From a plasmid: a stretch of DNA of 11,432 nucleotides. Each line of letters begins with the position of its first letter. The stretch's first letter is position 1. The stretch lies in sequence record NZ_CP060116.1; one strand, 5' to 3'. The notes beneath the pieces are model-generated. The model was given only the letters and a program-made list of their open reading frames with translations, was not told the origin of the DNA and did not search any database. A program made the translations under genes and the position numbers. Positions 510 through 11,165 of the stretch are shown here, one piece after another.

Positions 510-540
510 GGTAGCTTTTCAATCCTTGCTACCTTTTTTA
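510..540 (+). terminator. Rho-independent terminator (ggtagc / gctacc, then TTTTTT).
   Basis: 6-bp GC-containing stem, 12-nt loop, T-run at 534-539. It closes a roughly 110-nt region (400-510) that contains no ORF, which may be a small RNA. Confidence 0.4.
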
Positions 541-1036
541 TTGTCCGTGGAGAGTAGGGACTAGGTGTTTTATGTAGTCCCTTATGTAGTCCCTTTTTTT
601 TTCTTTTGTATACCAATATATTTTTAATACTTTTTTTTATTCAGGGACTAAAAGGACTACTTTTTTAATTGCTTTCATTATATATTATTTTTAGTATTTT
701 TCTTATATATACCAATACTTCTATTATTACTTTGAATTTCAAAGTATATTTTTTTTTCTTTATTTTCAATACTTTTTTAGTTTTTTATATGTGTTTTTTT
801 TTATATATATAGATTTTCTAGTCCCACCAGTCCCTAATAAAAAAAAAACTTTTAATTGCAATGGAAAAAGTAGGGACTAGGTATAGGGACTAGGTAGGGA
901 CTGTATCTTTTTTGACTTCAAAAAAATATATATTAGAATTATGATATTATCAATAGTATAAATCGTTTTTTAATTAGGGACTGTTTTAAAATCGGAAAAA
1001 ATAATTTTCCTCTTTCTTTTACTTCTCCACGGACAC
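541..1036. repeat. Iteron-like repeat field and probable replication origin. About 11 copies of core GGGACTA (TAGGGACTAGG, TATGTAGTCCC x2, AGGGACTAA, GGACTAC and others) in both orientations. It also contains an AT-rich ACCAATA-repeat stretch. The field is bounded by the inverted repeat TCTCCACGGACA (541-552 on the minus strand, 1024-1035 on the plus strand).
   Basis: Direct reading: plus-strand copies at about 557, 645, 873, 887, 899, 977; reverse-complement copies at about 577, 588, 820, 830. Located immediately upstream of the rep operon. Confidence 0.6.
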
Positions 1037-1400: not shown

Positions 1401-1625
1401 AAATATAAAAAAAATTCACTATTGGCACTAGTGAATTTAGAAGATAAAGAAAAAAAAACAATTCCGTTTATGATAGTTTTTTCTTTTGTTGTTCATATTA
1501 TACCACATAGAAAACCACATTTCAAGAAAAATCTGTACTATATATATTATGGCAAAAAAGTTCAAAACTATCGAAAAAATCTTCTGTTTATGTTTTTATC
1601 TATCCAAAAAAGGAGAGATAAAAAA

Positions 1626-3515
1626 ATGAAAAAAATAAAACCATTCCCAAAGTATGAAACACTAGAAAAAGATTTTCCACTTTCTATCAAAACTAAAACT
1701 ACTGTTAAATGGAACAATTTATCGCCATCTAACATCGCTAGATATATAATAAATGCAAAATTGGTAGGCAAGTACATCTATAAAGATTATGCAGAAAAAA
1801 ACGGAGAAGTCTATGAAACAAACAAAGGTATGTTAAAAATTTTTAATGAAGAATATGGTATATTTGTAAATGCAGATAATGTATTAAAAAAAATGATTTT
1901 TGAATTTTTTGAAGATGATGAAACTAAGCAAATTCAGAATTGTTGTAAATTCAGGTATACCAAAAATCCCGATGAAATCATAAAGAAGTTATTACTTCCA
2001 AGCCTGAAATATGAAATTAATAGGGTTTTAGAAAAATTGCATAACCACTGGAACGCAGGATTTGAGAAAGGATTTTTAAGTATTGTTTTTAAAAATGGTA
2101 CTCTATTGATGAATGTAAAAGAGAAAAAATGGCACTTTACAGAAGAAAAAAGTCCACAATTTTTGGCACAAGTTTATTTTAATACAAATTTTTTTCCACT
2201 TATAGCAGAAAAAAGGGAAAATAGACTATTTAATTTTTTAAATTTTAAGCTAGATTTACAAACAAAAGAAAAGCAAGATTTTATCAAAGCCTTGCTATTC
2301 GATTGGTTTTTCATAGAAAATAAAAGTCACCACATAATTTGCTTTGTTGGACGCCATAGCAGTGGAAAAAGTAGTTTTATGGAACATATAAAAACTTTTA
2401 GTAACTTTCATTCTTGGTGCAACAATATAAGTCTTAGCAGTTTGGTAGGGAACAAGTTTTCTGTCCCTGATTGGTTTTACTCGAATAATATATTCTGTAA
2501 TGAAACTAGCGAAAAATACTTCAAAGATAACAGTACATTTAAACTTCTAGTTGCAAAAGAAGTCTTAAGCGTGGAGCAAAAAGGCTTAGATATAGTATTT
2601 TTGAGAGCATTTAGCAAACTTATTTGCTTGGGAGAAGAGCCAATAAAGATAAAATCGGACGGGGGAGTTGACAAAAGAATAATGAACTTCCATTTCTCAG
2701 AGCAACAGTATCTTTTTTCAGAGCGAGAAAGATATGATTATAAAGATTACTTAGAACAAATACAGGAAGAAGATGAAACAGGAAACGACGCATTATTGCA
2801 ATATCTAGCATTCGGAAAATATGAAGACATTACACAAATTTTAATAGAGGGTTTTGAAGAATTTTGCAATAAAAAATACAATGATAACAAAAGAAAATTT
2901 AAAAGTAAATACGAAGAATTATTTGGAGAAGATATGGAAGTATTCGCAAGAATACAAAGTCCATACATCAATGGATATGAAACTTTTTTAGAGGCTTGTC
3001 CAAATTGTTGTGTGCAACTAACAACTTTTTTAAACATCTTAAAAGAATTAGAAGTTGAACAATATATTTCATCAACTGATACTTTAAGGGAGCATATAAA
3101 GAAAATAGATGAAACAATAAGAGATTATAAAAATGTTTATAGAGAATACTATTCTAAAACAAAAAATGTTAAAGTAGCAGTAGAAGAGCGAGGAAATGAA
3201 GATTTTTACACAACTTTGGCAAAAAAGAATAACTACATCTTTGGATTTAGGCTAAGAGAAAAAAAAGAAATTTATGATTTATTATTACAAAAAGTTAAAG
3301 ATACAGAAAAAGTTATTGCAACATATAACAGAATAAGAAGTTGCTTTAAAACTCTAACTGAAGAAAGTTTTAATAATTTGTTTCCACTTGCAACAGTAAC
3401 TAAAATAGAAGTTGCAGAACAACAAACAATAGATTTAGGTACTCCCCACGGACAAAAAGAAAAAACTATTGATGAAATGGAAGAAGAATTAAAAAATTTT
3501 TTTAAGGCAGAGTGA
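1626..3515 (+). CDS. Replication initiator/helicase with a P-loop NTPase fold showing D5/P4-type (SF3) helicase motifs. About 630 aa from ATG 1626. The track ORF starting at 1422 has no RBS.
   Basis: RBS AAAAAGGAGAG 8 nt before ATG 1626. Walker A FVGRHSSGKSSF. Downstream LVAKEVLSVEQKG, FSKLICLGEEPIKI and DGGVDKRIMNFHF resemble the conserved K-L-t-g-g-D, N-x-x-P and RR-finger blocks of the P4-family primase C-terminal helicase domain (compared from memory of that domain's consensus, not searched). Family assignment confidence is lower than the confidence that this is a CDS. Confidence 0.6.
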   Translation: MKKIKPFPKYETLEKDFPLSIKTKTTVKWNNLSPSNIARYIINAKLVGKYIYKDYAEKNGEVYETNKGMLKIFNEEYGIFVNADNVLKKMIFEFFEDDETKQIQNCCKFRYTKNPDEIIKKLLLPSLKYEINRVLEKLHNHWNAGFEKGFLSIVFKNGTLLMNVKEKKWHFTEEKSPQFLAQVYFNTNFFPLIAEKRENRLFNFLNFKLDLQTKEKQDFIKALLFDWFFIENKSHHIICFVGRHSSGKSSFMEHIKTFSNFHSWCNNISLSSLVGNKFSVPDWFYSNNIFCNETSEKYFKDNSTFKLLVAKEVLSVEQKGLDIVFLRAFSKLICLGEEPIKIKSDGGVDKRIMNFHFSEQQYLFSERERYDYKDYLEQIQEEDETGNDALLQYLAFGKYEDITQILIEGFEEFCNKKYNDNKRKFKSKYEELFGEDMEVFARIQSPYINGYETFLEACPNCCVQLTTFLNILKELEVEQYISSTDTLREHIKKIDETIRDYKNVYREYYSKTKNVKVAVEERGNEDFYTTLAKKNNYIFGFRLREKKEIYDLLLQKVKDTEKVIATYNRIRSCFKTLTEESFNNLFPLATVTKIEVAEQQTIDLGTPHGQKEKTIDEMEEELKNFFKAE

Positions 3516-4564
3516 TAAAAATGTCTAATATAAAATCATTAGCCTTTAAAGATAAGCTAGAAAAAATACATAGTTTAGAATATAAAATTTTAAGTTATTA
3601 TGGAGTGGACTTAGACAATTTCTATTGTCCACACTGTAATTCAAAAAGAATGAAACCTTTTAAGAGCAACAAGGGAGAATATCACAAGCTAAAATGTTAT
3701 GGTTGCAGTAGCACCCTTGATATCTTAGACATAGCAAAATTAATGGATAGTAACTTAAAAAATTTTAATCCAGGTGCAGTGGTAGACTATTTATTAAGTT
3801 TAGATTATAGTAATATAGAAAGTGCTTCACAAGTGGAACAAATAAAAAAATCAAAATCGGATCCGTTTTTAATAGATTATGATGAGTTCATAGCAAATAG
3901 TTTAAATAAATTTAATCGTGCAGTAGATACTAAGAATGCAGATGAATTAGAGTACCTTTATAGCAGGGGATATAATAATGAAGATTTAATCTATTTAAAA
4001 AATTTTCTAGGAATAGATGAACATAATAATATTATGTTTGCTTGTAGCAGAGAAAGTTTTATACTTAGACTGTTGAAACCTTGGCACGATAAAAATGGTA
4101 AGGAAATTAGATATAAAAACTCTCCTAGATTAGAAAATACAAGACATTATTGTTACCTGTTAGATACTGTAAATCAAAATAATATTATAAAAAATAACTA
4201 TAATATTTTCATCTTTGAGGGAGGATTTGACACTATAACATTTAGAATTTTATGTAAAAATAAATGCTTATGCTTCGCAACGGGGGGAGCAGATAGCAAC
4301 CATAATTTAATAGCAAATAAGATAAATGATATAGCAGGTAGATTAAATTATAAAGTTAATGTATTCATCTTATTTGATAACGATGAAGCAGGAGAAAATA
4401 ACACAACTTTACTTGCAGAATTATTTAATAAAAACTATATAAATGTATATACTAAAATGTCAAAATTCTTATTCAAAAACAGTAAAGATATAAGCGAAGA
4501 ATTTAAAAATAATCGTGCAGAGTTAGAAATAAGAATAAAATATTTATTAAATAAAATAAGTTAA
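3512..4564 (+). CDS. DnaG-like DNA primase with an N-terminal zinc-binding domain and a TOPRIM domain. The start is GTG 3512, overlapping the upstream stop, or ATG 3521.
   Basis: Zinc finger CPHCNSKRMKPF...YHKLKCYGCSSTLDILD (compare DnaG CPFH..EKTPSF...YHCFGCG). TOPRIM E-G-x-x-D in IFIFEGGFDTITF and D-x-D-x-x-G in FILFDNDEAGEN. Translationally coupled to the helicase gene. Confidence 0.8.
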   Translation: MIKMSNIKSLAFKDKLEKIHSLEYKILSYYGVDLDNFYCPHCNSKRMKPFKSNKGEYHKLKCYGCSSTLDILDIAKLMDSNLKNFNPGAVVDYLLSLDYSNIESASQVEQIKKSKSDPFLIDYDEFIANSLNKFNRAVDTKNADELEYLYSRGYNNEDLIYLKNFLGIDEHNNIMFACSRESFILRLLKPWHDKNGKEIRYKNSPRLENTRHYCYLLDTVNQNNIIKNNYNIFIFEGGFDTITFRILCKNKCLCFATGGADSNHNLIANKINDIAGRLNYKVNVFILFDNDEAGENNTTLLAELFNKNYINVYTKMSKFLFKNSKDISEEFKNNRAELEIRIKYLLNKIS

Positions 4565-4568
4565 AAAA

Positions 4569-4600
4569 TAAGGGGTACTATTATATAGCTACCCCTTTTA
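4569..4600. terminator. Bidirectional rho-independent terminator between convergent genes.
   Basis: AAGGGGTA / TACCCCTT 8-bp stem with T-rich flanks on both strands. Confidence 0.6.
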
Positions 4601-4620
4601 AAATGATTTTAAACGCTATC

Positions 4621-5061
4621 TCAGGCGTTCGTTTTTTCTTCTGTTTTTTCTTCTTCATCAACTTTCTTTTCTTCTTTTATTTCTTTACTTTTATTTTTTA
4701 TATCTTCAAAAGAATTTTTTATTTTTTCTTCAATTTCTTCAAGGAACAGTTTCGCATTTTCTACACTAAGTTTATTCACAGATACATTAATTAATTTTAC
4801 AATTTCTTCAATTTTCAAATCATTTTCGGCTACCTTGGTGAACTTTAAAATCTGAGCAGGAGTTAAGCCAAAGTCCTTATAACTTTTCTTTTTAGCCTTA
4901 TTTTTAGCTTCATTTTTCTTCTCCACGGACTTATTCTTTTCTTCAATAATTTTCTTATAAGCTTCAGTCTTACTATAATTTTCTTGGTCAGGAATATTTA
5001 TTTTTTCTTCTGTATTTTCTTCAACATTTATATTTTTATTTTCTTCAAATTCATTATACAT
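4621..5061 (-). CDS. K/E-rich hypothetical protein (146 aa), probably coiled-coil. Function unknown.
   Basis: RBS AAGGAG 10 nt upstream of ATG on the minus strand. Own promoter, and convergent on the shared terminator. Shares the identical 20-nt stretch AATAAGTCCGTGGAGAAGAA (NKSVEKK) with the relaxase gene. Confidence 0.55.
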   Translation of the reverse strand: MYNEFEENKNINVEENTEEKINIPDQENYSKTEAYKKIIEEKNKSVEKKNEAKNKAKKKSYKDFGLTPAQILKFTKVAENDLKIEEIVKLINVSVNKLSVENAKLFLEEIEEKIKNSFEDIKNKSKEIKEEKKVDEEEKTEEKTNA

Positions 5062-5125: not shown

Positions 5126-5224
5126 TAAAAAAATATGCTATTTCCCCTTTTAAATCAATATCTTTTTTTAATAAAATATGTTATAATTTATATACAAAAT
5201 AGTACTATATTTATTAAAAGGGGA

Positions 5225-5400
5225 AATAGGCAAGATACTCGCTATACCGTAAACGGTATGCTTTATCTTGCAAAGGGTTGCACCCTTTTGAAACCTGCAT
5301 TGCACTTATACTTCATAAAAGCAGTGCTTTTAATTGTATCGTGCAAGTGGGGAAGTTTTAGCACTCCCCACACCCCTTGCTATTGCGAATTAATGTTTAA
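5225..5400. other. GC-enriched, highly structured element with at least four hairpins. Candidate oriT (the relaxase nick region) or a single-strand initiation site or structured RNA.
   Basis: Nested hairpin GCAAGATA...[ATACCGT aa ACGGTAT]...TATCTTGC at 5230-5271. AAAGGGT tgc ACCCTTT at 5272-5288. GCACT...AGTGC at 5302-5327. GTGGGGA...TCCCCAC at 5347-5371. Lies immediately upstream of the mobC-relaxase operon. The track ORF 5135-5422 over it is judged spurious. Confidence 0.4.
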
Positions 5401-5515
5401 ATTTTTATCGGGACAACGATAAAAATTCAAAATTAACTCGCTAGAAAAAAGCTAAAAATATAACATACTTTGAAGAAAAATTATATATTATTAAGTTTGA
5501 AGAAAGGAGTAGTAA

Positions 5516-5905
5516 ATGTATAGAGAAGAAGTAGAAAAAGTTGAGCCTATCAGGAAGAAAAGAGTAGAATTTCAGGTTGAAGAAGAACTATTAAATTTAT
5601 TAGATATAAGAGCAGATATAAAAGAAATTAGTAGGAGCGAATATATAAGAAATTTAATTTTAAAAGATATAGGAAATATTAATAATAGTATAGATATAGA
5701 CACATTGAAGAAGATAAAAAGGTTAATGGTAGAGTTTAGAAAAATGCGAATAGCATTCACTAAATTAGGAGTAGTTTTTAATCAAGGAATTAAACTATTT
5801 ATTAAAGATAAAAAAGAAGAATTAGAAGCCATAGAAGATGAATTGATTAACTTGCTAGATGAAGAAAAAGAGAAGCTAGAAGATTATAAAAAGTATCTAT
5901 TGTAA
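5516..5905 (+). CDS. mobC: MobC-like relaxosome accessory protein (ribbon-helix-helix N-terminus).
   Basis: RBS AAAGGAG. N-terminus RKKRVEFQVEEELLNLLDIRADIKEISRSEYIRNLIL is RHH-like. KLGVVFNQGIKLFI resembles the MobC family G-N-N-L-N-Q-I-A motif. Directly precedes the relaxase. Confidence 0.65.
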   Translation: MYREEVEKVEPIRKKRVEFQVEEELLNLLDIRADIKEISRSEYIRNLILKDIGNINNSIDIDTLKKIKRLMVEFRKMRIAFTKLGVVFNQGIKLFIKDKKEELEAIEDELINLLDEEKEKLEDYKKYLL

Positions 5906-5914
5906 GGGGGATAT

Positions 5915-7315
5915 ATGCCAATTTTAAAAGCAATAGGAAAAAACAAAGATAAAAAGAAAGGAAGTACCAAGCAAACATTAGCAGGAATGAAAGCAGTATT
6001 AAATTACATAGCAAGAGCAGGGAAAGAAGAACAAATTTATAAAGCTTTTGGAATGGGATTAAGCGATAATGTAGATAAGGCTAATAACACAATAATTTTT
6101 AATAAAAAGACGCACGATAAAGTGGATAGTAACTTATATAAACATTTTGCTTTATCGTTCCCCCCGGGATTTGATAATCTTGAACTAATAGAGAAGATTA
6201 CAAGAGAATTTGTACAAAAAGAATATGTAGATAAAGGCTTTTTGTGTTATGTGGGGATACATATAGATAAAGACCATTACCATAGCCATATTTTAGTTGA
6301 TACAGTGAATTTTAATACAGGTTATAAGCTACATCAATTAGATAATGCAGATATGAAGAAAGCAAGATATAAAGACAAAATTCTTCCTGAACAAGAAATA
6401 TCACTTGAACATTTAAAGGATAGTATGGAAGAAATAGCAATGTCTTATGGAGTAGAAAGCCCTGAGCGAAAAAAGGAAAAGAACAAGAGTATAAACATAG
6501 GAAAAATGGCTAAGTATAAAGGAATAACAAAAGAGAATTCGTGGCGAACTAAGATAGCAAAAAATTTTGAAGATATTGTTTTAAATCTTAATACGACAAT
6601 AGAAAATTTGCAGGATAAGTTAAAAGAAAAAGGTATCTTCTTTAATCGTTTTAATAAAGAAAAAAGAACTCTAACACTAGGTACAATGTACGAGGATAAG
6701 GGGAAGACTAAAAAAGGGTTAGTAAAACTTAGTACACTAGAAGCAGAAGAAGATTATAGATTTCAAGCAACTAAAAATATTTATAATTGGGATAATTTAT
6801 GGAAAGAACTAGACAAGCACAATGTTAAATTATTGGAGCAGGAGAAAGAAAAAAATAACGAAATTAATTTAGAATTAGATTTAGATATTTTTGATGAAAT
6901 AGAAAAAGAAATTAAATTAGAATTAGAAAAAGAAAAGGAACTAACTAAGTCTAAGACAAAGACAAAGACAAAGACATATACTATTGAAGAAGAAAGACAA
7001 ATTGATGAAAATACAAGAATATGGATTGAAAATTACAATAAAAAGCAGGAAATAGAAAAAGAAAATAATAAGTCCGTGGAGAAGAAAGAAGAAAAGCCAA
7101 AAGTTGTTGAGTTAAATGCTATTGAAAAAGCCAAAATAAGCCAACAATTAGCAGAAGAACAAAGATTAAAAGAATTAGAAGCAGAAAAATTAGCAAAGAA
7201 GAAGAAAGCGACTGTAACTGAATGGGTTGATGAGAAAGACCAGTGGGTAGACGAGAAAGATGAGTGGGTTAGTGAGTGGGAAGATGATAAAAATGATTGG
7301 GATTTAAGTAAATAA
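5915..7315 (+). CDS. Mobilization relaxase, MOBP-like (relaxase/mobilisation nuclease domain), with a long K/E-rich low-complexity C-terminal tail.
   Basis: RBS GGGGG. N-terminal motif I with candidate catalytic Tyr in KAVLNYIAR (compare RP4 TraI ELVKYITD). Histidine-triad motif III HIDKDHYHSHILVDTVN (HxDxDHxHxHxxxN). Confidence 0.85.
   Translation: MPILKAIGKNKDKKKGSTKQTLAGMKAVLNYIARAGKEEQIYKAFGMGLSDNVDKANNTIIFNKKTHDKVDSNLYKHFALSFPPGFDNLELIEKITREFVQKEYVDKGFLCYVGIHIDKDHYHSHILVDTVNFNTGYKLHQLDNADMKKARYKDKILPEQEISLEHLKDSMEEIAMSYGVESPERKKEKNKSINIGKMAKYKGITKENSWRTKIAKNFEDIVLNLNTTIENLQDKLKEKGIFFNRFNKEKRTLTLGTMYEDKGKTKKGLVKLSTLEAEEDYRFQATKNIYNWDNLWKELDKHNVKLLEQEKEKNNEINLELDLDIFDEIEKEIKLELEKEKELTKSKTKTKTKTYTIEEERQIDENTRIWIENYNKKQEIEKENNKSVEKKEEKPKVVELNAIEKAKISQQLAEEQRLKELEAEKLAKKKKATVTEWVDEKDQWVDEKDEWVSEWEDDKNDWDLSK
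6953..6976 (+). repeat. Perfect tandem hexanucleotide repeat (AAGACA)x4 inside the relaxase gene, encoding (KT)4.
   Basis: Read directly. In-frame unit, so slippage would change length but not frame. Confidence 0.8.
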
Positions 7316-7325
7316 GGAGCGTAAA

Positions 7326-8591
7326 ATGGAAGAAAACAAGGAGAAATTCTTAGAAAATCTTAAAATAATTGGAACTATTCCAGGTTTATTAAAAAATAAT
7401 ACAGAGCAAATGGCGAAGATAGAAGCAGAATTAAATGATTTTAAAAAAGATATTGGAAAATCTTCATCTGTTATTGCTACTAATTATAGCAAATTAATTG
7501 AATTAAAGGCTTTATTATCCAACCTAAATGAAGAAGAATTAAAAGAGATTACATTAAAATTAACAAATACATTAGAGCCTTTAAAAAAGGATTTAAAAAC
7601 AATAATTTTAAAAGAAATTTTAGTAGATATAGAGCCACAAATAAAAGAAGTGGTATTAAAAGACCTAAAAACTTTAATAACAACTGAATTTATCGAGAGT
7701 ACAAGCAATATAATAAAACAGTATGAAGAAGATTTTAGAGAAAAAATCGAAAGCAGGAGCAACACTATAATTGAAAGTATTGAGAATAACACAAAAAACA
7801 TTGAAATTATGAATAATAATAAAATAAAAATGAAAGAAGATATATTAAATCTTATAAATGCCCTTGGAGAAGATAGAAGCATAAGAACTGATATACTTGA
7901 AAAAGATAGAAATGCAAGAGCAAGAGAAGTACAGAGCATTAAAGATACATCTAGCGAAATCATAAAGAACACTAACGAATATAACTTCTTAAATAGTAGC
8001 GAATTTCATTTCTATAATAATATATCACAGGCTATCCTAGGAGCAGTTTTAACAGTAGCAGGAGCGATTAAGAGATACAATATAATCTTAATCTTAATCT
8101 TATTAGCATATACAGTTTTTAAAGGCTTCATTGCATACAAAGTAGGAACTAAGCAGGATAAGTACAATCTAAAAGCAATAGATGAAGAATTTTTTAATAA
8201 AGTTAAGGACAAAATTGTCTTGCAAGTCCTTTATTTTCTTTCAGGAATTGCTTTAATAATCTGTAATATGATAATTTATGATTTTTTTAACAAAAAAATT
8301 AATATAAATCTATTTAATATAGCATTAATTACAATAGATTTCATTGTTAAATATCAAATTTTGGGAATTTTTATTATTAATCTACTTGGTTTTATACCAT
8401 TTTTAATATTTACAAAAATAGAAAATTCTTTTAAACTTACTTTTAAGGAGCAGGAAACTTACACAGAAGATGAAAAAAGAAAAAAGGAAATAGTTAGCAG
8501 GGGGTTTAAATTTATAGGCTTTCTATTACTTGGAATGTCTATTTTTATATCTATTTATTACTTCGTTCCAACTTTATTTTTAAAGTATTAG
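7326..8591 (+). CDS. Membrane protein (421 aa) with an N-terminal coiled-coil/soluble domain of about 225 aa and four predicted TM helices at the C-terminus. Possibly a MobB-like mobilization accessory protein. Function unknown.
   Basis: RBS TAAGGAG 7 nt upstream, in an operon with the relaxase. Hydrophobic segments AILGAVLTVAGAI..ILILILLAYTVF, VLQVLYFLSGIALIICNMII, LFNIALITIDFIV..ILGIFIINLLGFIPFLIF, FIGFLLLGMSIFISIYYFV. No P-loop motif. Confidence 0.6.
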   Translation: MEENKEKFLENLKIIGTIPGLLKNNTEQMAKIEAELNDFKKDIGKSSSVIATNYSKLIELKALLSNLNEEELKEITLKLTNTLEPLKKDLKTIILKEILVDIEPQIKEVVLKDLKTLITTEFIESTSNIIKQYEEDFREKIESRSNTIIESIENNTKNIEIMNNNKIKMKEDILNLINALGEDRSIRTDILEKDRNARAREVQSIKDTSSEIIKNTNEYNFLNSSEFHFYNNISQAILGAVLTVAGAIKRYNIILILILLAYTVFKGFIAYKVGTKQDKYNLKAIDEEFFNKVKDKIVLQVLYFLSGIALIICNMIIYDFFNKKININLFNIALITIDFIVKYQILGIFIINLLGFIPFLIFTKIENSFKLTFKEQETYTEDEKRKKEIVSRGFKFIGFLLLGMSIFISIYYFVPTLFLKY

Positions 8592-8598
8592 CAACATA

Positions 8599-8627
8599 AG
8601 GCACAATTAAGGTTGTGTCTTTTTTTA
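8599..8627 (+). terminator. Rho-independent terminator of the mob operon.
   Basis: aggcacaa / ttgtgtct stem (one G-U pair), 6-nt loop, T7 run. Confidence 0.6.
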
Positions 8628-8790
8628 CTTAAGGGGAACACCCCTTAACAACCCCCTATTATGCGTCATTATCCCCAGTCCCCCAACGAGCAGGGGAACT
8701 CTTGGGGACACTCGGCGTTGCTAGTTCTTATAGAACACCACTTATGAGCCACCCTTGTTACTTCCTATACAGTCCGTGGGGAAATACTCA
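8628..8790. other. GC-rich structured island in an otherwise AT-rich intergenic region. Candidate ncRNA, single-strand initiation site or recombination/attachment site.
   Basis: Perfect hairpin TTAAGGGG aaca CCCCTTAA at 8629-8648. Multiple C4-5/G4-5 runs (ccccag, tccccc, agggga, tgggga) that could pair. Ends with a fifth copy of the CCACGGAC motif at 8772-8779 on the minus strand. Confidence 0.3.
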
Positions 8791-9166
8791 ATAATTCAGT
8801 TATTAACTTCTTATTTGTAGTATATTAATTATTCATTTTTATTTTATTTTGATATACTAATATTTAAAAATACTTAATTATACAATATCAATACATTTTT
8901 ATTAATATCAATTACTATTTAAGTTCAGTATATAGAATTTATTTTATATTGATATTAAATAATATTTTTTATAGTATACTATAACTATATCTATAACATA
9001 TCATCATAATTTGAGTTCTATTATAGTATTTTATGTATTTAAAAATATTATATTGATTTTAAAATAATTTAAAATTAAAAATTTATTTCAATTTTTGCTA
9101 GAATACCGATTTTACCTTATATTCAATCTTATAGTGTATATATAGTTTATATATAATATATCAGTG

Positions 9167-9182
9167 ATATAGTTATAATATA
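9167..9182 (+). repeat. 16-bp direct repeat ATATAGTTATAATATA, copy 1, inside a TATAGT-rich AT tract.
   Basis: Identical to 10039-10054. Region 9130-9230 carries at least 7 TATAGT(G/T) units. Confidence 0.6.
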
Positions 9183-9256
9183 GTTATATTATAGTGCATT
9201 ATTGATAGTATATATAGTTACAATATAATATTGTTTCTTCCATTTTTTTAATTAAG

Positions 9257-9265
9257 TGGTATAAT
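9257..9265 (+). promoter_or_regulatory. Perfect extended -10 element TGgTATAAT. Candidate promoter of the RHH-protein gene. An alternative TTGACA, 17 nt, ATAAAT lies at 9311-9339.
   Basis: Read directly. Tandem CACTGAT repeats lie just downstream of the predicted start site. Confidence 0.3.
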
Positions 9266-9275
9266 ATAGACATAG

Positions 9276-9307
9276 CACTGATGAACACTGATACAAGATA
9301 CACTATA
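9276..9307 (+). promoter_or_regulatory. Candidate operator. Direct repeats CACTGAT (9276, 9286) and CACTATA (9301), the first two spaced exactly 10 bp apart.
   Basis: aCACTGATgaaCACTGATacaagataCACTATAaaa. Direct repeats on one helical face are typical of RHH repressor operators. Confidence 0.35.
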
Positions 9308-9417
9308 AAATTGACAATAATTTATTATTGGAAATAAATAGAAAAAACTATCATTTTTTATAGTATATGTTATATTAGTATTGCATTTATTTTATAAAAT
9401 ACAAGGGAGGTTTTATT

Positions 9418-10017
9418 ATGAGCGTACATCGTTTGACGCAGGAAAAAATTGACAGTATTAAAAAGAAAATTCAAGACAAAATTGATTTAAAAGAGATTAT
9501 AATTGCACATTTTGGGAATAGCAAACACAGGTTTGATGAATGGTTGAGTAAAAACAGTTCTCATTTTACTGGTGCAGAATTAGATTATTTAAACTTTGTA
9601 ATTGTTATTGATAACAAGGCTTCAGGAGCAGGAGCAAAAGTAAAAGTAAAAGATGAAGAAATGGAAGTAATTCAAGATAAAAAAGAAATTGATATTGAAG
9701 AAAAAAACACTATCTTAACAGTAGCTGTTCCTAACTTAACACAAGTGGCACTAATGAGCAGAAAAGATAGAGAAAACTTCCTATTAAGTAATCAAGTAAT
9801 TGAAAAACTTGTAAATCTATTAAGTAATACAGATATAAAAGACACAAACATAGTAATAAGAGATGAAGCAAGAAACTTAAAAGATTTAAAAATACAGAAT
9901 ATAAGGATATCAGAGCAAATTTATAAAGATTTTGTAAACATCTGTAAAAAACACAACTTAACTATAACAAGTGTAATTAATAGTATGTTCTTAGATTTCA
10001 TCAGTCAACACAAATAA
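9418..10017 (+). CDS. Putative DNA-binding protein (199 aa) with a C-terminal ribbon-helix-helix-like fold. Candidate transcriptional or partition regulator.
   Basis: Strong RBS GGGAGG. C-terminus IRISEQIYKDFVNICKKHNLTITSVINSMFLDFI has a beta-strand/helix/loop/helix pattern like CopG/Arc/omega. Confidence 0.6.
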   Translation: MSVHRLTQEKIDSIKKKIQDKIDLKEIIIAHFGNSKHRFDEWLSKNSSHFTGAELDYLNFVIVIDNKASGAGAKVKVKDEEMEVIQDKKEIDIEEKNTILTVAVPNLTQVALMSRKDRENFLLSNQVIEKLVNLLSNTDIKDTNIVIRDEARNLKDLKIQNIRISEQIYKDFVNICKKHNLTITSVINSMFLDFISQHK

Positions 10018-10387: not shown

Positions 10388-11020
10388 ATGGCAATATATG
10401 GTTATGCAAGAGTTTCGAGGGAAGTGCAAGACTTAACAAGACAATTAAAAGCCTTAACAAGTGTAGGAGTTGAGCCACAAAACATCTTTAAAGATATTGG
10501 AAGTGGGAAAGACTTCAATAGAATAGAGTATCAAAAGCTAGTCAATCAAACTTTAAAAGCAGGAGATACCTTATACATTACATCTATTGACCGACTTGGT
10601 AGAGATATGAAAGCCATAGAGCAAGAATACAAGGTTATAACAGAACTAAGACAATGTAAGTTAATTAGCTTAGATGAGCCTTTTTTATCTTCATCTAATG
10701 ATGAAATTATGAATGAACTCCTAAGACCTATTCTTTTGAAGTTTTTAAGTTGGGTAGCAGAGAGAGAAAGAAAAGAAATGTTGAATAGACAAAAACAAGC
10801 CTACTCATCAATGAAAAAGGACTGGAAAGGACGATTGATAAGTAACAAGACAGGTAAAGTAATTGGACGACCTAAAAAGTATATAGACCTAACCAAAGAC
10901 CAAAGACATAAAGTCGAAGAATGGATTGCAGGAAGTAGAAGTTGTCTATCTGTTGCTAAGGAGTTAGGAATTTCAAGGACTACATTATATAGAATAAGAG
11001 AGGAAGAATATACAGAGTAA
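10388..11020 (+). CDS. Serine recombinase of the resolvase/invertase family (210 aa).
   Basis: N-terminal catalytic motif IYGYARVSREVQD (Ser in RVS). DRLGRD. GRPKK. C-terminal HTH SVAKELGISRTTLYRI. Collinear with Tn3/gamma-delta resolvase. Confidence 0.9.
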   Translation: MAIYGYARVSREVQDLTRQLKALTSVGVEPQNIFKDIGSGKDFNRIEYQKLVNQTLKAGDTLYITSIDRLGRDMKAIEQEYKVITELRQCKLISLDEPFLSSSNDEIMNELLRPILLKFLSWVAERERKEMLNRQKQAYSSMKKDWKGRLISNKTGKVIGRPKKYIDLTKDQRHKVEEWIAGSRSCLSVAKELGISRTTLYRIREEEYTE

Positions 11021-11022
11021 AC

Positions 11023-11097
11023 AAAAAAGGCTTCTCATTCAAGAGCAGTGAGGGACTACTCATATATTTTTTGAGGGGAGAGAAAAGCCTTTTCTGT
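11023..11097. other. Long imperfect inverted repeat (AAAAAGGCTTCTC ... GAGAGAAAAGCCTTTT) enclosing a 43-nt loop that contains GAGGGACTAC. Possible terminator or recombinase-associated site.
   Basis: Read directly. The loop carries the same GGGACTA core as the iterons at 541-1036. Confidence 0.3.
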
Positions 11098-11165
11098 TAA
11101 AATATTAATCTTATCAGTTGTATTATACCATAAATTAAAGAAAATGGAAATGTAAGGGGGAGTAA

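Follow-up and report, generated by a model that had tools for sequence, protein, structure and literature searches.

A conserved non-coding island beside the mobilisation genes of Fusobacterium plasmids probably represents a small RNA gene or a site for priming on single-stranded DNA

Analysis of a Fusobacterium plasmid sequence revealed a GC-rich island of ~170 bases, which is better conserved than the genes around it and folds on a single strand. For these reasons it probably represents an undescribed gene for a small RNA or a priming site on single-stranded DNA, and not a recombinase site. The window, by which is meant the whole stretch of DNA analysed here (NZ_CP060116.1; 11,432 nt, overall GC content of 0.267), is probably a complete plasmid. 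The entire conserved island occupies positions 8622–8784 and is assigned to the minus strand, with homology limits of 8613–8784 when compared with a group of 14-kb plasmids. It was detected as one copy each in ~45 related plasmids and metagenome contigs, and it is this conservation that carries the case for the island being real beyond chance.

Fusobacterium nucleatum and its relatives are cancer-associated and genetically hard to manipulate, and their native plasmids represent raw material for shuttle vectors. The island is the best-conserved non-coding element common to a family of mobilisable plasmids of 11–17 kb. Should it act as a regulator of mobilisation or establishment, or as a site of complementary-strand priming, it would be needed in vectors that are to be efficiently transferred and maintained, and it would add an RNA or single-strand origin (sso) class from a phylum for which none has been described on plasmids. 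Were the island to be neutral, little would be lost, and it is presented here as a modest lead rather than a surprise.

Plasmid organisation and boundaries of the island

The gene layout of the window was read from ORFs with Pfam and NCBIfam. Genes encoding an HTH protein of 79 aa (1161–1400), a DUF5906/P4-type helicase (1422–3515) and a Toprim primase (3512–4564) are followed by a 146-aa gene on the minus strand, located between the Toprim primase gene and a GC-rich region with nested inverted repeats (5220–5400). Downstream of this region, genes were identified for a NikA-like accessory protein (5516–5905), a MobA/VirD2-type relaxase (5915–7315) and a 421-aa coiled-coil and membrane protein (7326–8591), the last of these being the final gene of the mob operon. 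The island and then an AT-rich tract lie between the 421-aa gene and the gene for a 199-aa protein with a weak Arc/RelB-like C-terminus (9418–10017), beyond which a serine resolvase is encoded (10388–11020).

Just upstream of the replication genes, ten AGGGACT/AGTCCCT iterons were found around a core of 16% GC (540–1000). This iteron region, rather than the AT-rich tract beside the island, is likely to represent the vegetative origin (oriV); the tract was rejected as a replication origin, given that it is missing from three relatives (L007, L008 and L030) and that an iteron-type origin is present at 540–1000. An oriT-like architecture, consisting of an inverted repeat and a nick region upstream of the accessory and relaxase genes, was observed at 5220–5400, as well as at the equivalent place in two relatives (L042 and L043). 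The possibility that the island is a second oriT or nick region was discarded, as its alignment with the oriT-like region (5195–5425) scored 18 against a shuffle mean of 16.9.

An earlier note, based on the letters of this DNA only, had described the island as a non-coding, GC-rich stretch in sharp contrast with its flanks, which follows a terminator and ends at a copy of a recurrent motif, and each of these features was recovered. The GC content was 0.46 in 8601–8800 as opposed to 0.12–0.25 in the flanks. Just before the island lies the intrinsic terminator of the mob operon (8598–8626, plus strand), composed of a hairpin with a 10-bp stem and a 4-nt loop (8598–8621) and a T-run, and at the island end the motif GTCCGTGG is present at 8772–8779. 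The island contains ORFs of 21–30 codons only; most relatives do not have the ATG at 8661, and indels of 1–2 nt among relatives disrupt every reading frame. None of these ORFs is hydrophobic or conserved across the indels, for which reason a small peptide or type I toxin–antitoxin system was rejected.

Conservation and distribution of the island

Using blastn, the island was found in 14 Fusobacterium plasmids of PLSDB, to which a pattern scan added 28 metagenome contigs. An nhmmer profile built from the island alignment retrieved five further PLSDB plasmids, in which the island is either whole (pKCOM2517, pKCOM1001A and pSB006A) or diverged (pKCOM3036A and pKCOM1250), with exactly one full copy per plasmid. 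The best matches to positions 8560–8830 were found in pFh1249-2 of F. hwasookii (97% identity), pKCOM1001B (94%) and pKKCOM1330C (89%). Phage records and viral contigs yielded no island match, and a pattern scan of the genome collection identified no true island in species-representative genomes, its lone match being a chance occurrence in GC-rich coding sequence from a Microbacterium MAG. Literature searches returned no description of the element or of the non-coding regions of this plasmid family.

The island is 81–97% identical between plasmids whose coding DNA is only 64–70% identical and whose relaxases and replication proteins differ. Compared with the 14-kb plasmids, identity amounts to 81% in the island and 64–70% in coding DNA, and the mob module cannot be aligned. 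In pFh1249-2, an island that is 97% identical to that of the window is accompanied by a helicase of only 43% identity; across the plasmids that share an 81–97% identical island, the DUF5906 helicases are only 42–47% identical. Furthermore, the island was observed beside a DnaB-like helicase (pSB006A; L043) and, in a diverged form that scores 85–88 bits with nhmmer and keeps both of the hairpins described below, in association with RepB-type initiators (L042 and L046). The earlier note had named a lack of conservation or covariation among relatives as one of the findings that would speak against it; both were clearly found.

In every annotated case, the final gene of the mob operon and its terminator were found to directly precede the island, which in annotated plasmids is followed by an AT-rich spacer and then by an operon ending in the resolvase gene. 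At least three mob-module lineages are represented, with relaxases of 466, ~515–595 and ~760–780 aa and last mob genes of 421, ~335 and 137 aa; these lineages share an oriT-like architecture in which a long inverted repeat is followed by AAAGGGG..CCCCTTTTGA. The spacer is dispensable, as a distance of 50–70 nt separates the island from a TTGACA-17-TATAAT promoter in pSB012B, the ChDC F306 plasmid and L030-type contigs; in most plasmids, 350–750 nt of dispensable AT-rich DNA is present between the island and the operon.

Two relatives (L048 and L049) were shown to be without the island yet to retain the module of phd, a ~200-aa protein gene and the resolvase gene, and these carry a MobV relaxase or no relaxase. 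Their resolvase is 61% identical to that of the window, as compared with only 50% for the island-bearing 14-kb plasmids. This pattern of co-occurrence indicates that the island goes with the MobA/VirD2-type mob module, and that it is tied neither to the resolvase nor to any one replication machinery. Weak nhmmer matches in L048 and L049 (E=0.4–0.5) correspond to a different, perfect 16-bp terminator-like hairpin and were not accepted as homologues.

Strand-specific hairpins

The island had also been described as structured, on the grounds of a perfect 8-bp hairpin with a tetraloop and of dense complementarity between C-runs and G-runs. When compared with shuffled sequences, a 174-nt stretch folded as RNA gave z-scores of −1.4 for the plus strand and −2.4 for the minus strand, and of ~−2 when folded as DNA. 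The whole stretch is thus only moderately more stable than shuffles, and the description holds for two hairpins, though not for the island in its entirety.

The perfect hairpin is indeed present at 8629–8648 (hairpin 1; TTAAGGGG-AACA-CCCCTTAA), with a predicted stability of −7.2 kcal/mol as DNA (z=−3.1). In relatives it takes the form GGGG-TTTA-CCCC or GGGGG-TCT(T)A-CCCCC, so that three unrelated GC hairpins occur at slightly shifted positions. Since hairpin 1 is swapped among unrelated sequences, its structure is conserved and its sequence is not. On the minus strand, a U-rich run follows two of the three forms, and none follows the form found in the window.

The C-run/G-run complementarity, which is likewise present, resolves into a single bulged hairpin (hairpin 2; 8671–8709, minus strand), the only part of the island with covariation support. 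It is built from a 6-bp outer stem and an inner stem of at most 10 bp, with a 3-nt bulge between the two, and is capped by a 5-nt loop, C-U-Y-G-W (YUNR type); it reads 5′-GUCCCC / AAG / AGUUCCCCUG / CUCGU / CGGGGGGACU / GGGGAU on the minus strand, where two G·U pairs are conserved. A covariation analysis with RNAalifold, as had been proposed in the earlier note, recovered hairpin 2 from each of three alignments (12, 35 and 36 sequences), with compensatory changes present. Across the 36 sequences, 99.8% of the cells are paired, a level reached by none of 500 column shuffles, and this proportion falls to 64–66% when the partners are slid by one column. Double compensatory changes were observed for two pairs (UA↔CG, 19/17; CG↔AU, 18/17), four pairs change on one side with pairing kept, and all ten inner pairs stay intact throughout. 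The double changes occur together and divide the family in two, indicative of few evolutionary events. In pKCOM2517 and pKCOM3036A, the order of a C-G and a U·G pair is swapped with pairing intact, and the loop variants (CUCGU, CUUGU and CUUGA) all keep C-U-N-G, a pattern that we take to be typical of antisense-RNA recognition loops.

Among the 16 distinct versions of hairpin 2, all 32 non-Watson–Crick cells are G·U on the minus strand and A·C on the plus strand, and one extra cell is mismatched on both strands, which brings the plus-strand mismatches to 33. As the non-Watson–Crick pairs are G·U on the minus strand only, this strand is considered to be the working one. G·T pairs also form in single-stranded DNA, however, so that the asymmetry does not separate RNA from single-stranded DNA; folded as DNA, the minus version of hairpin 2 is only 0.7–3 kcal/mol more stable than the plus version. 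The data require that function is exerted by the minus strand in single-stranded form, be it RNA or DNA.

Adjacent to hairpin 2, a 60-nt block (8710–8771, minus strand; TCGGCGTTG ... AGCCACC when read on the plus strand) is kept in sequence without supported pairing. Helices proposed by RNAalifold within this block, as well as a long-range CUCC/GGGG closing stem, were rejected, as their pairs are either invariant or altered on one side without compensation, and are not maintained in L041/L042. A short unit, ACTTCCTA, is variably duplicated at the right end of the block in some relatives. Between the two hairpins, a G-run (8656–8652) is preceded on the minus strand by a −10-like hexamer, CATAAT (8663–8658; the two together spanning 8652–8663), which is TATAAT or TATATT in relatives and of which A2, T3, A4 and T6 are invariant in 36 sequences. 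A minus-strand G-quadruplex was also considered and rejected, since only three G-runs are left in one of the hairpin 1 forms (form B), and the arrangement is therefore not conserved.

A putative minus-strand small RNA

Our preferred, though tentative, reading is that the island is the gene for a putative small non-coding RNA of ~160–200 nt, which is encoded on the minus strand and is convergent with the mob operon. A structured small RNA was among the candidates of the earlier note; it is compatible with the present results and represents the best-supported reading, in view of the minus-strand pairing with compensatory changes, a promoter-like element, and the hairpins and bidirectional terminator at the left edge. 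Invariant or swapped G·U pairs, such as those of hairpin 2, are the usual signature of RNA helices.

We infer that transcription would start near 8784, from a weak sigma-70-type promoter for which a candidate is located at 8819–8791 on the minus strand (TACAAA at 8819–8814, a 17-nt spacer and AATTAT at 8796–8791), in which case the first bases of the RNA would be the CCACGGAC motif, i.e. GTCCGTGG as read on the minus strand. The RNA would then pass through the conserved unpaired block, form the bulged hairpin 2 with its YUNR loop and subsequently hairpin 1, and end at hairpin 1 or, alternatively, at the bidirectional terminator (8621–8598) common to the island and the mob operon. The terminator hairpin also forms in the minus-strand RNA folds of three relatives and, when read on the minus strand, could end the predicted island transcript; its U content on this strand is only moderate. 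The putative RNA may act on mobilisation or plasmid establishment by means of its loop and single-stranded segments, an action that we infer from the fact that the element travels with one type of mob module (MobA/VirD2-type relaxase and NikA/MobC accessory protein).

In each of three unrelated flank types, a promoter-like element was observed at a distance of 9–11 nt upstream from CCACGGAC. The element of the 14-kb plasmids (TTTACA-17-TATACT) matches up to 10 of 12 positions and that of the L030 type (TTGAAA-16-TAAATT) matches nine, while that of the window type matches seven. In AT-rich background DNA, 42% of positions score at least 7/12, 6.8% at least 9 and 1.7% at least 10; the match in the window is thus not above background, and a Fisher combination of the background frequencies for the three flank types gives a marginal p of roughly 0.04. 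In the short-spacer relatives, the candidate promoter and the TTGACA-17-TATAAT promoter that serves the phd operon are arranged back-to-back. The conservation limits coincide with the candidate promoter on one side and with hairpin 1 and the common terminator on the other, and the predicted full-length minus-strand RNAs gave z-scores of −3.8 to −4.2. The hexamer at 8663–8658 was rejected as a duplex promoter, as neither a −35 element nor a TG extension is present in any relative.

A comparison with Rfam 15, which had been suggested as a means of identifying such an RNA, produced no match at the gathering threshold over the whole window. At E≤10, the region 8500–8900 returned only ohsC_RNA (16.5 bits; threshold 50) and Clostridiales-2 (12.1 bits; threshold 58.6), and a search for tRNA and tmRNA returned nothing.

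The candidate RNA resembles the YUNR-loop antisense RNAs CopA, FinP, RNAI and Sok in its bulged GC-rich stem-loop, its conserved G·U pairs and its 5-nt C-U-N-G loop, as well as in being plasmid-encoded and in sharing a terminator region with a convergent operon. It differs from these RNAs in that the island is not positioned upstream of a rep or transfer-activator gene and in that a complementary target loop was not identified. The convergent genes do not have the same 3′ ends in different plasmids, which makes a conserved target in cis-antisense unlikely, and a simple seed-to-target reading fails because the other copies of GTCCGTGG occur in both orientations relative to genes.

A further parallel is offered by sgm-sRNA of SGI1, a small RNA which is encoded inside a mobilisation module and is needed for transfer (PMC9299015). 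Like the candidate RNA, it is located next to mob genes, and it is unlike a classical base-pairing regulator (PMC9299015). The two are nonetheless unrelated in sequence, host and mob proteins, with a tyrosine-recombinase-type MpsA in SGI1 as opposed to a MobA/VirD2 relaxase; moreover, sgm-sRNA, whose place is between mpsA and oriT, arises by processing of a longer mRNA, whereas the candidate RNA would be read towards the operon.

A possible single-strand origin or priming site

A close rival, in our judgement somewhat less probable, is that the island functions as DNA, namely as an sso- or ssi-like site at which the minus strand, when single-stranded, folds into hairpins 1 and 2 and is free of SSB. 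The minus strand would in this case be the conjugally transferred strand or the lagging-strand template of a fork leaving oriV. Host RNA polymerase, DnaG or a PriA-type primosome would lay a primer at the island, and extension of this primer would copy the entire maintenance and replication backbone, which on the minus strand is situated to the 5′ side of the island.

The position of the island fits such a role, as in every plasmid it directly follows the mob operon, in the same way that sso1 of ICEBs1, a ~200-bp, orientation-specific element, is located immediately downstream of the relaxase gene (PMC4595007). Its strand-specific structure is equally consistent with such a site, as is its co-occurrence with the MobA/VirD2-type module across three diverged relaxase lineages and its absence alongside MobV or no relaxase. 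In addition, a fork that moves left from the iteron-type oriV at 540–1000 would have the minus strand as its lagging-strand template. In systems of the RP4/R64 type, it is the template strand of the relaxase operon that is transferred, and if these rules apply, the transferred strand of the present plasmid would be the minus strand. In pMV158 and ICEBs1, on the other hand, the transferred (and active) strand corresponds to the relaxase sense strand, which here is the plus strand and thus the poorer-pairing one, the best-folding strand of the island being antisense to the relaxase operon.

The earlier note had suggested an ssi site serving the plasmid's own primase. While an ssi/sso function stands as the main rival to the small RNA, the link to the plasmid's primase fails, since islands of 81–97% identity occur together with DUF5906 helicases of 42–47% identity, a DnaB-like helicase or a RepB-type initiator. 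This independence from the plasmid's own helicase, primase and initiator would instead fit recognition by host enzymes. Theta-type replication with a dedicated primase and helicase may, however, render a special priming site unneeded. As for the fold itself, the advantage of 0.7–3 kcal/mol for the minus strand of hairpin 2 as DNA is small, and G·U pairs in RNA are easier to account for than two near-invariant G·T mismatches within a stem of DNA. A long-stem single-stranded promoter of the Frpo type was rejected, as no arm is complementary to the TATAAT region.

The island shares with sso1 of ICEBs1, ssoT of pTA1060/pBAA1 and ssoA/ssoU of pMV158 a length of ~170–200 nt, an abundance of G-runs and C-runs, a strand-specific and presumably orientation-specific character and a location directly downstream of the relaxase gene or operon. 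It differs from them in sequence: nhmmer and blastn detected no similarity to ssoT of pTA1060 (sso at 6349–6549), neither CS-6 nor RSB is present in the island, and TAGCG[TA], which includes CS-6 (TAGCGT), occurs on neither strand of 8622–8790. Its host plasmid is, furthermore, a theta replicon with iterons, helicase and primase. The ssiA and ssiB sites of RSF1010 and the G4- and phiX-type signals of ColE1, F and R100 are similar to the island in being hairpin-containing, strand-specific and present on mobilisable plasmids, where they permit the complementary strand to be primed, either following transfer or in lagging-strand synthesis. The RSF1010 sites, however, measure 40 nt, are found on both strands within oriV and work only with that plasmid's own primase, whereas the island is a single copy at 3 kb from oriV and shows no co-variation with the plasmid primase or helicase. 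Sequence-based comparison placed the island in none of the known classes examined, and with no match in Rfam or the literature it constitutes a family-restricted element.

Less likely readings: protein binding, recombination and a relic

A function of the island as duplex DNA is unlikely. According to this explanation, it would be bound by a protein, either as an accessory or crossover site of the resolvase, as a partition or regulatory site of the Arc/RHH-like 199-aa protein, or as a far-upstream regulatory region of the maintenance operon. The near-invariance of the 60-nt block at 8710–8771 in spite of its lack of supported pairing would be expected of such a site; the edge motif GTCCGTGG behaves like a dispersed protein-binding site, a protein with a weak Arc/RelB-like C-terminus is encoded downstream, and in the short-spacer relatives a mere ~50 nt lies between the end of the island and the −35 box of the phd–resolvase operon downstream. 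Most plasmids, though, have 350–750 nt of dispensable DNA before this operon, and recognisable homologues of the 199-aa protein were found in only six plasmids, as opposed to the many more that carry the island. The island is also absent from L048 and L049 despite their phd/~200-aa protein/resolvase module and their more closely related resolvase (61% versus 50%). No repeated half-sites are present, and the arms of hairpin 2 are made asymmetric by the 3-nt bulge, which, together with G·U imperfections confined to one strand, is not expected of a site bound by a dimer on duplex DNA.

The serine-recombinase res or att site that had been put forward in the earlier note is disfavoured: the island is located 1.6 kb upstream of the resolvase gene rather than adjacent to it, its pairing is strand-asymmetric, two plasmids with the more closely related resolvase (L048 and L049) do not carry it, and its only dyad is asymmetric with a bulge. 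A dif/Xer site was likewise considered, as ACGCATAA presumably resembles the XerC arm of E. coli dif, and was rejected on account of a spacing that is off by one and of the loss of the TGTTAA part in hairpin 1 forms B and C; the likeness of ACTTCCTA to the left arm of B. subtilis dif is not conserved among relatives.

It is very unlikely that the island is a functionless relic kept similar by recent recombination, for example at a favoured crossover at the junction of mob module and backbone, for although homology between plasmid groups starts exactly at the left edge of the island and the mob modules to its left are unrelated at the DNA level, the compensatory and wobble-preserving changes of hairpin 2 and the replacement of hairpin 1 by three sequences point to selection on structure, the diverged copies of RepB-type plasmids (85–88 bits) still hold both hairpins, and the other boundary of the mob module has no matching repeat. 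A related cassette model was rejected, as the site at this other boundary (4555–4640) aligns no better than shuffles.

The motif at the island edge

The sequence at the right-hand edge of the island recurs elsewhere in the plasmid. The octamer GTCCGTGG at 8772–8779 is one of six exact copies in the window, where ~0.45 copies would be expected with one mismatch allowed and 0.007 exact copies. It forms part of GTCCGTGGGGAA (8772–8783, plus strand), a copy of a plasmid-wide 12-nt motif, GTCCGTGGRGAR, of which 4–6 copies were observed in every helicase-plus-Toprim replicon of the family (0.007 expected). In these helicase-type replicons the copy at the island edge is invariant, whereas the motif is absent from four RepB-type relatives, their islands included.

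Two convergent copies of GTCCGTGGRGAR (543 on the plus strand and 1027 on the minus strand of the window) enclose the region that precedes the HTH and helicase genes, and further recurrent copies are located near the 3′ end of the helicase gene and at the island. In every complete plasmid, all copies, including lineage-specific extra ones, were found to point toward the bracketed origin. This distribution and orientation indicate that the motif belongs to the replicon and not to the core of the island.

That the island and the dispersed motif are two parts of one undescribed plasmid system is distinctly unlikely. Such a system would combine a mob-linked, strand-specific RNA or single-stranded DNA element with an origin-pointing, polar 12-mer that has its strongest site at the island, and the helicase–primase machinery or the HTH protein may read GTCCGTGGRGAR and thereby direct priming, fork polarity or gene control. 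If true, the motif would represent a small-plasmid counterpart of polar signals of the Chi, KOPS or Ter type.

Vegetative origin and a dispersed sequence motif

The vegetative origin of the plasmid is likely to be an iteron region at window positions 540-1000, rather than the AT-rich tract adjoining the island (the conserved GC-rich non-coding element that follows the mob operon). In this region, which immediately precedes the HTH, helicase and primase genes, a core of 16% GC is surrounded by ten AGGGACT/AGTCCCT iterons in both orientations. The presumed oriV is bracketed by a convergent pair of a 12-nt motif, GTCCGTGGRGAR, and every copy of this motif is oriented toward oriV. In the window, copies were observed at 543-550(+), 1027-1034(-), 3446-3453(-), 4923-4930(-), 7072-7079(+) and 8772-8779(+).

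The motif is present at 4-6 copies per plasmid, compared with an expected 0.007, and was identified in all helicase-plus-Toprim replicons. Related plasmids and contigs that also carry it are L021, L028, L031, L035, L039, L041, L043 and L047, and it was not found in four RepB-type relatives. Candidate roles are those of an operator, of a signal for priming or for the helicase, and of a polar site resembling Chi or Ter.

Two motif copies were also shown to lie inside a 35-nt inverted repeat, the arms of which (4909-4943 and 7059-7093) exhibit a 91% match. One arm is located within a 146-aa minus-strand ORF and the other within the relaxase, and both encode K-S-V-E-K-K in an identical codon phase.

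The AT-rich repeat tract

The AT-rich repeat tract (window 8800-9400; 1692-2150 in the related sequence L006) is dispensable; it is absent from L007, L008 (compared site, 1680-1760) and L030-type contigs. In L006, the tract has direct repeats, GCTTG(T/A)AATCAATC, on both sides, as would be expected if recombination between these repeats had removed or introduced it. The tract also holds 5.5 copies of an 11-nt periodic repeat, ATATAGTTATA, upstream of the gene encoding the 199-aa Arc-like protein.

A candidate oriT

The first GC island of the plasmid, at window positions 5220-5400, resembles an oriT: its long inverted repeat (GCAAGATA..TATCTTGC) precedes AAAGGGT-TGC-ACCCTTT TGA. Two plasmids with relaxases of other lineages, the RepB-type relative L042 (4680-4770) and the DnaB-like-helicase relative L043 (12170-12260), exhibit the same architecture upstream of the accessory gene. 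A 95-aa ORF (5135-5422), which overlaps the candidate oriT and had no Pfam match, is probably spurious.

Other features

Two relatives that lack the island (L049, 3780-3870; L048, 10245-10330, minus strand) have, in the corresponding position ahead of the phd operon, a perfect 16-bp hairpin whose loop is CGACCAGCA and which precedes a T8 run, ~150 nt past the terminator of the preceding gene. This region could represent a separate small plus-strand transcript.

On contig ERZ773022 NODE-991 (20.5 kb; L018, 1-13091), ~9.5 kb of DNA with 45-55% GC is joined to island-bearing Fusobacterium-type plasmid DNA of 25% GC; this junction reflects either a chimeric assembly or the placement of a plasmid segment within a foreign context.

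Two further non-coding stretches, at window positions 11021-11165 (just downstream of the resolvase gene) and 1-230 (after an 83-aa ORF, and including a terminator-like hairpin, CACCACTTATTCCAGTAAGTAGTG), exhibit 80-96% identity to the island-bearing 14-kb plasmids and are better conserved than the genes.
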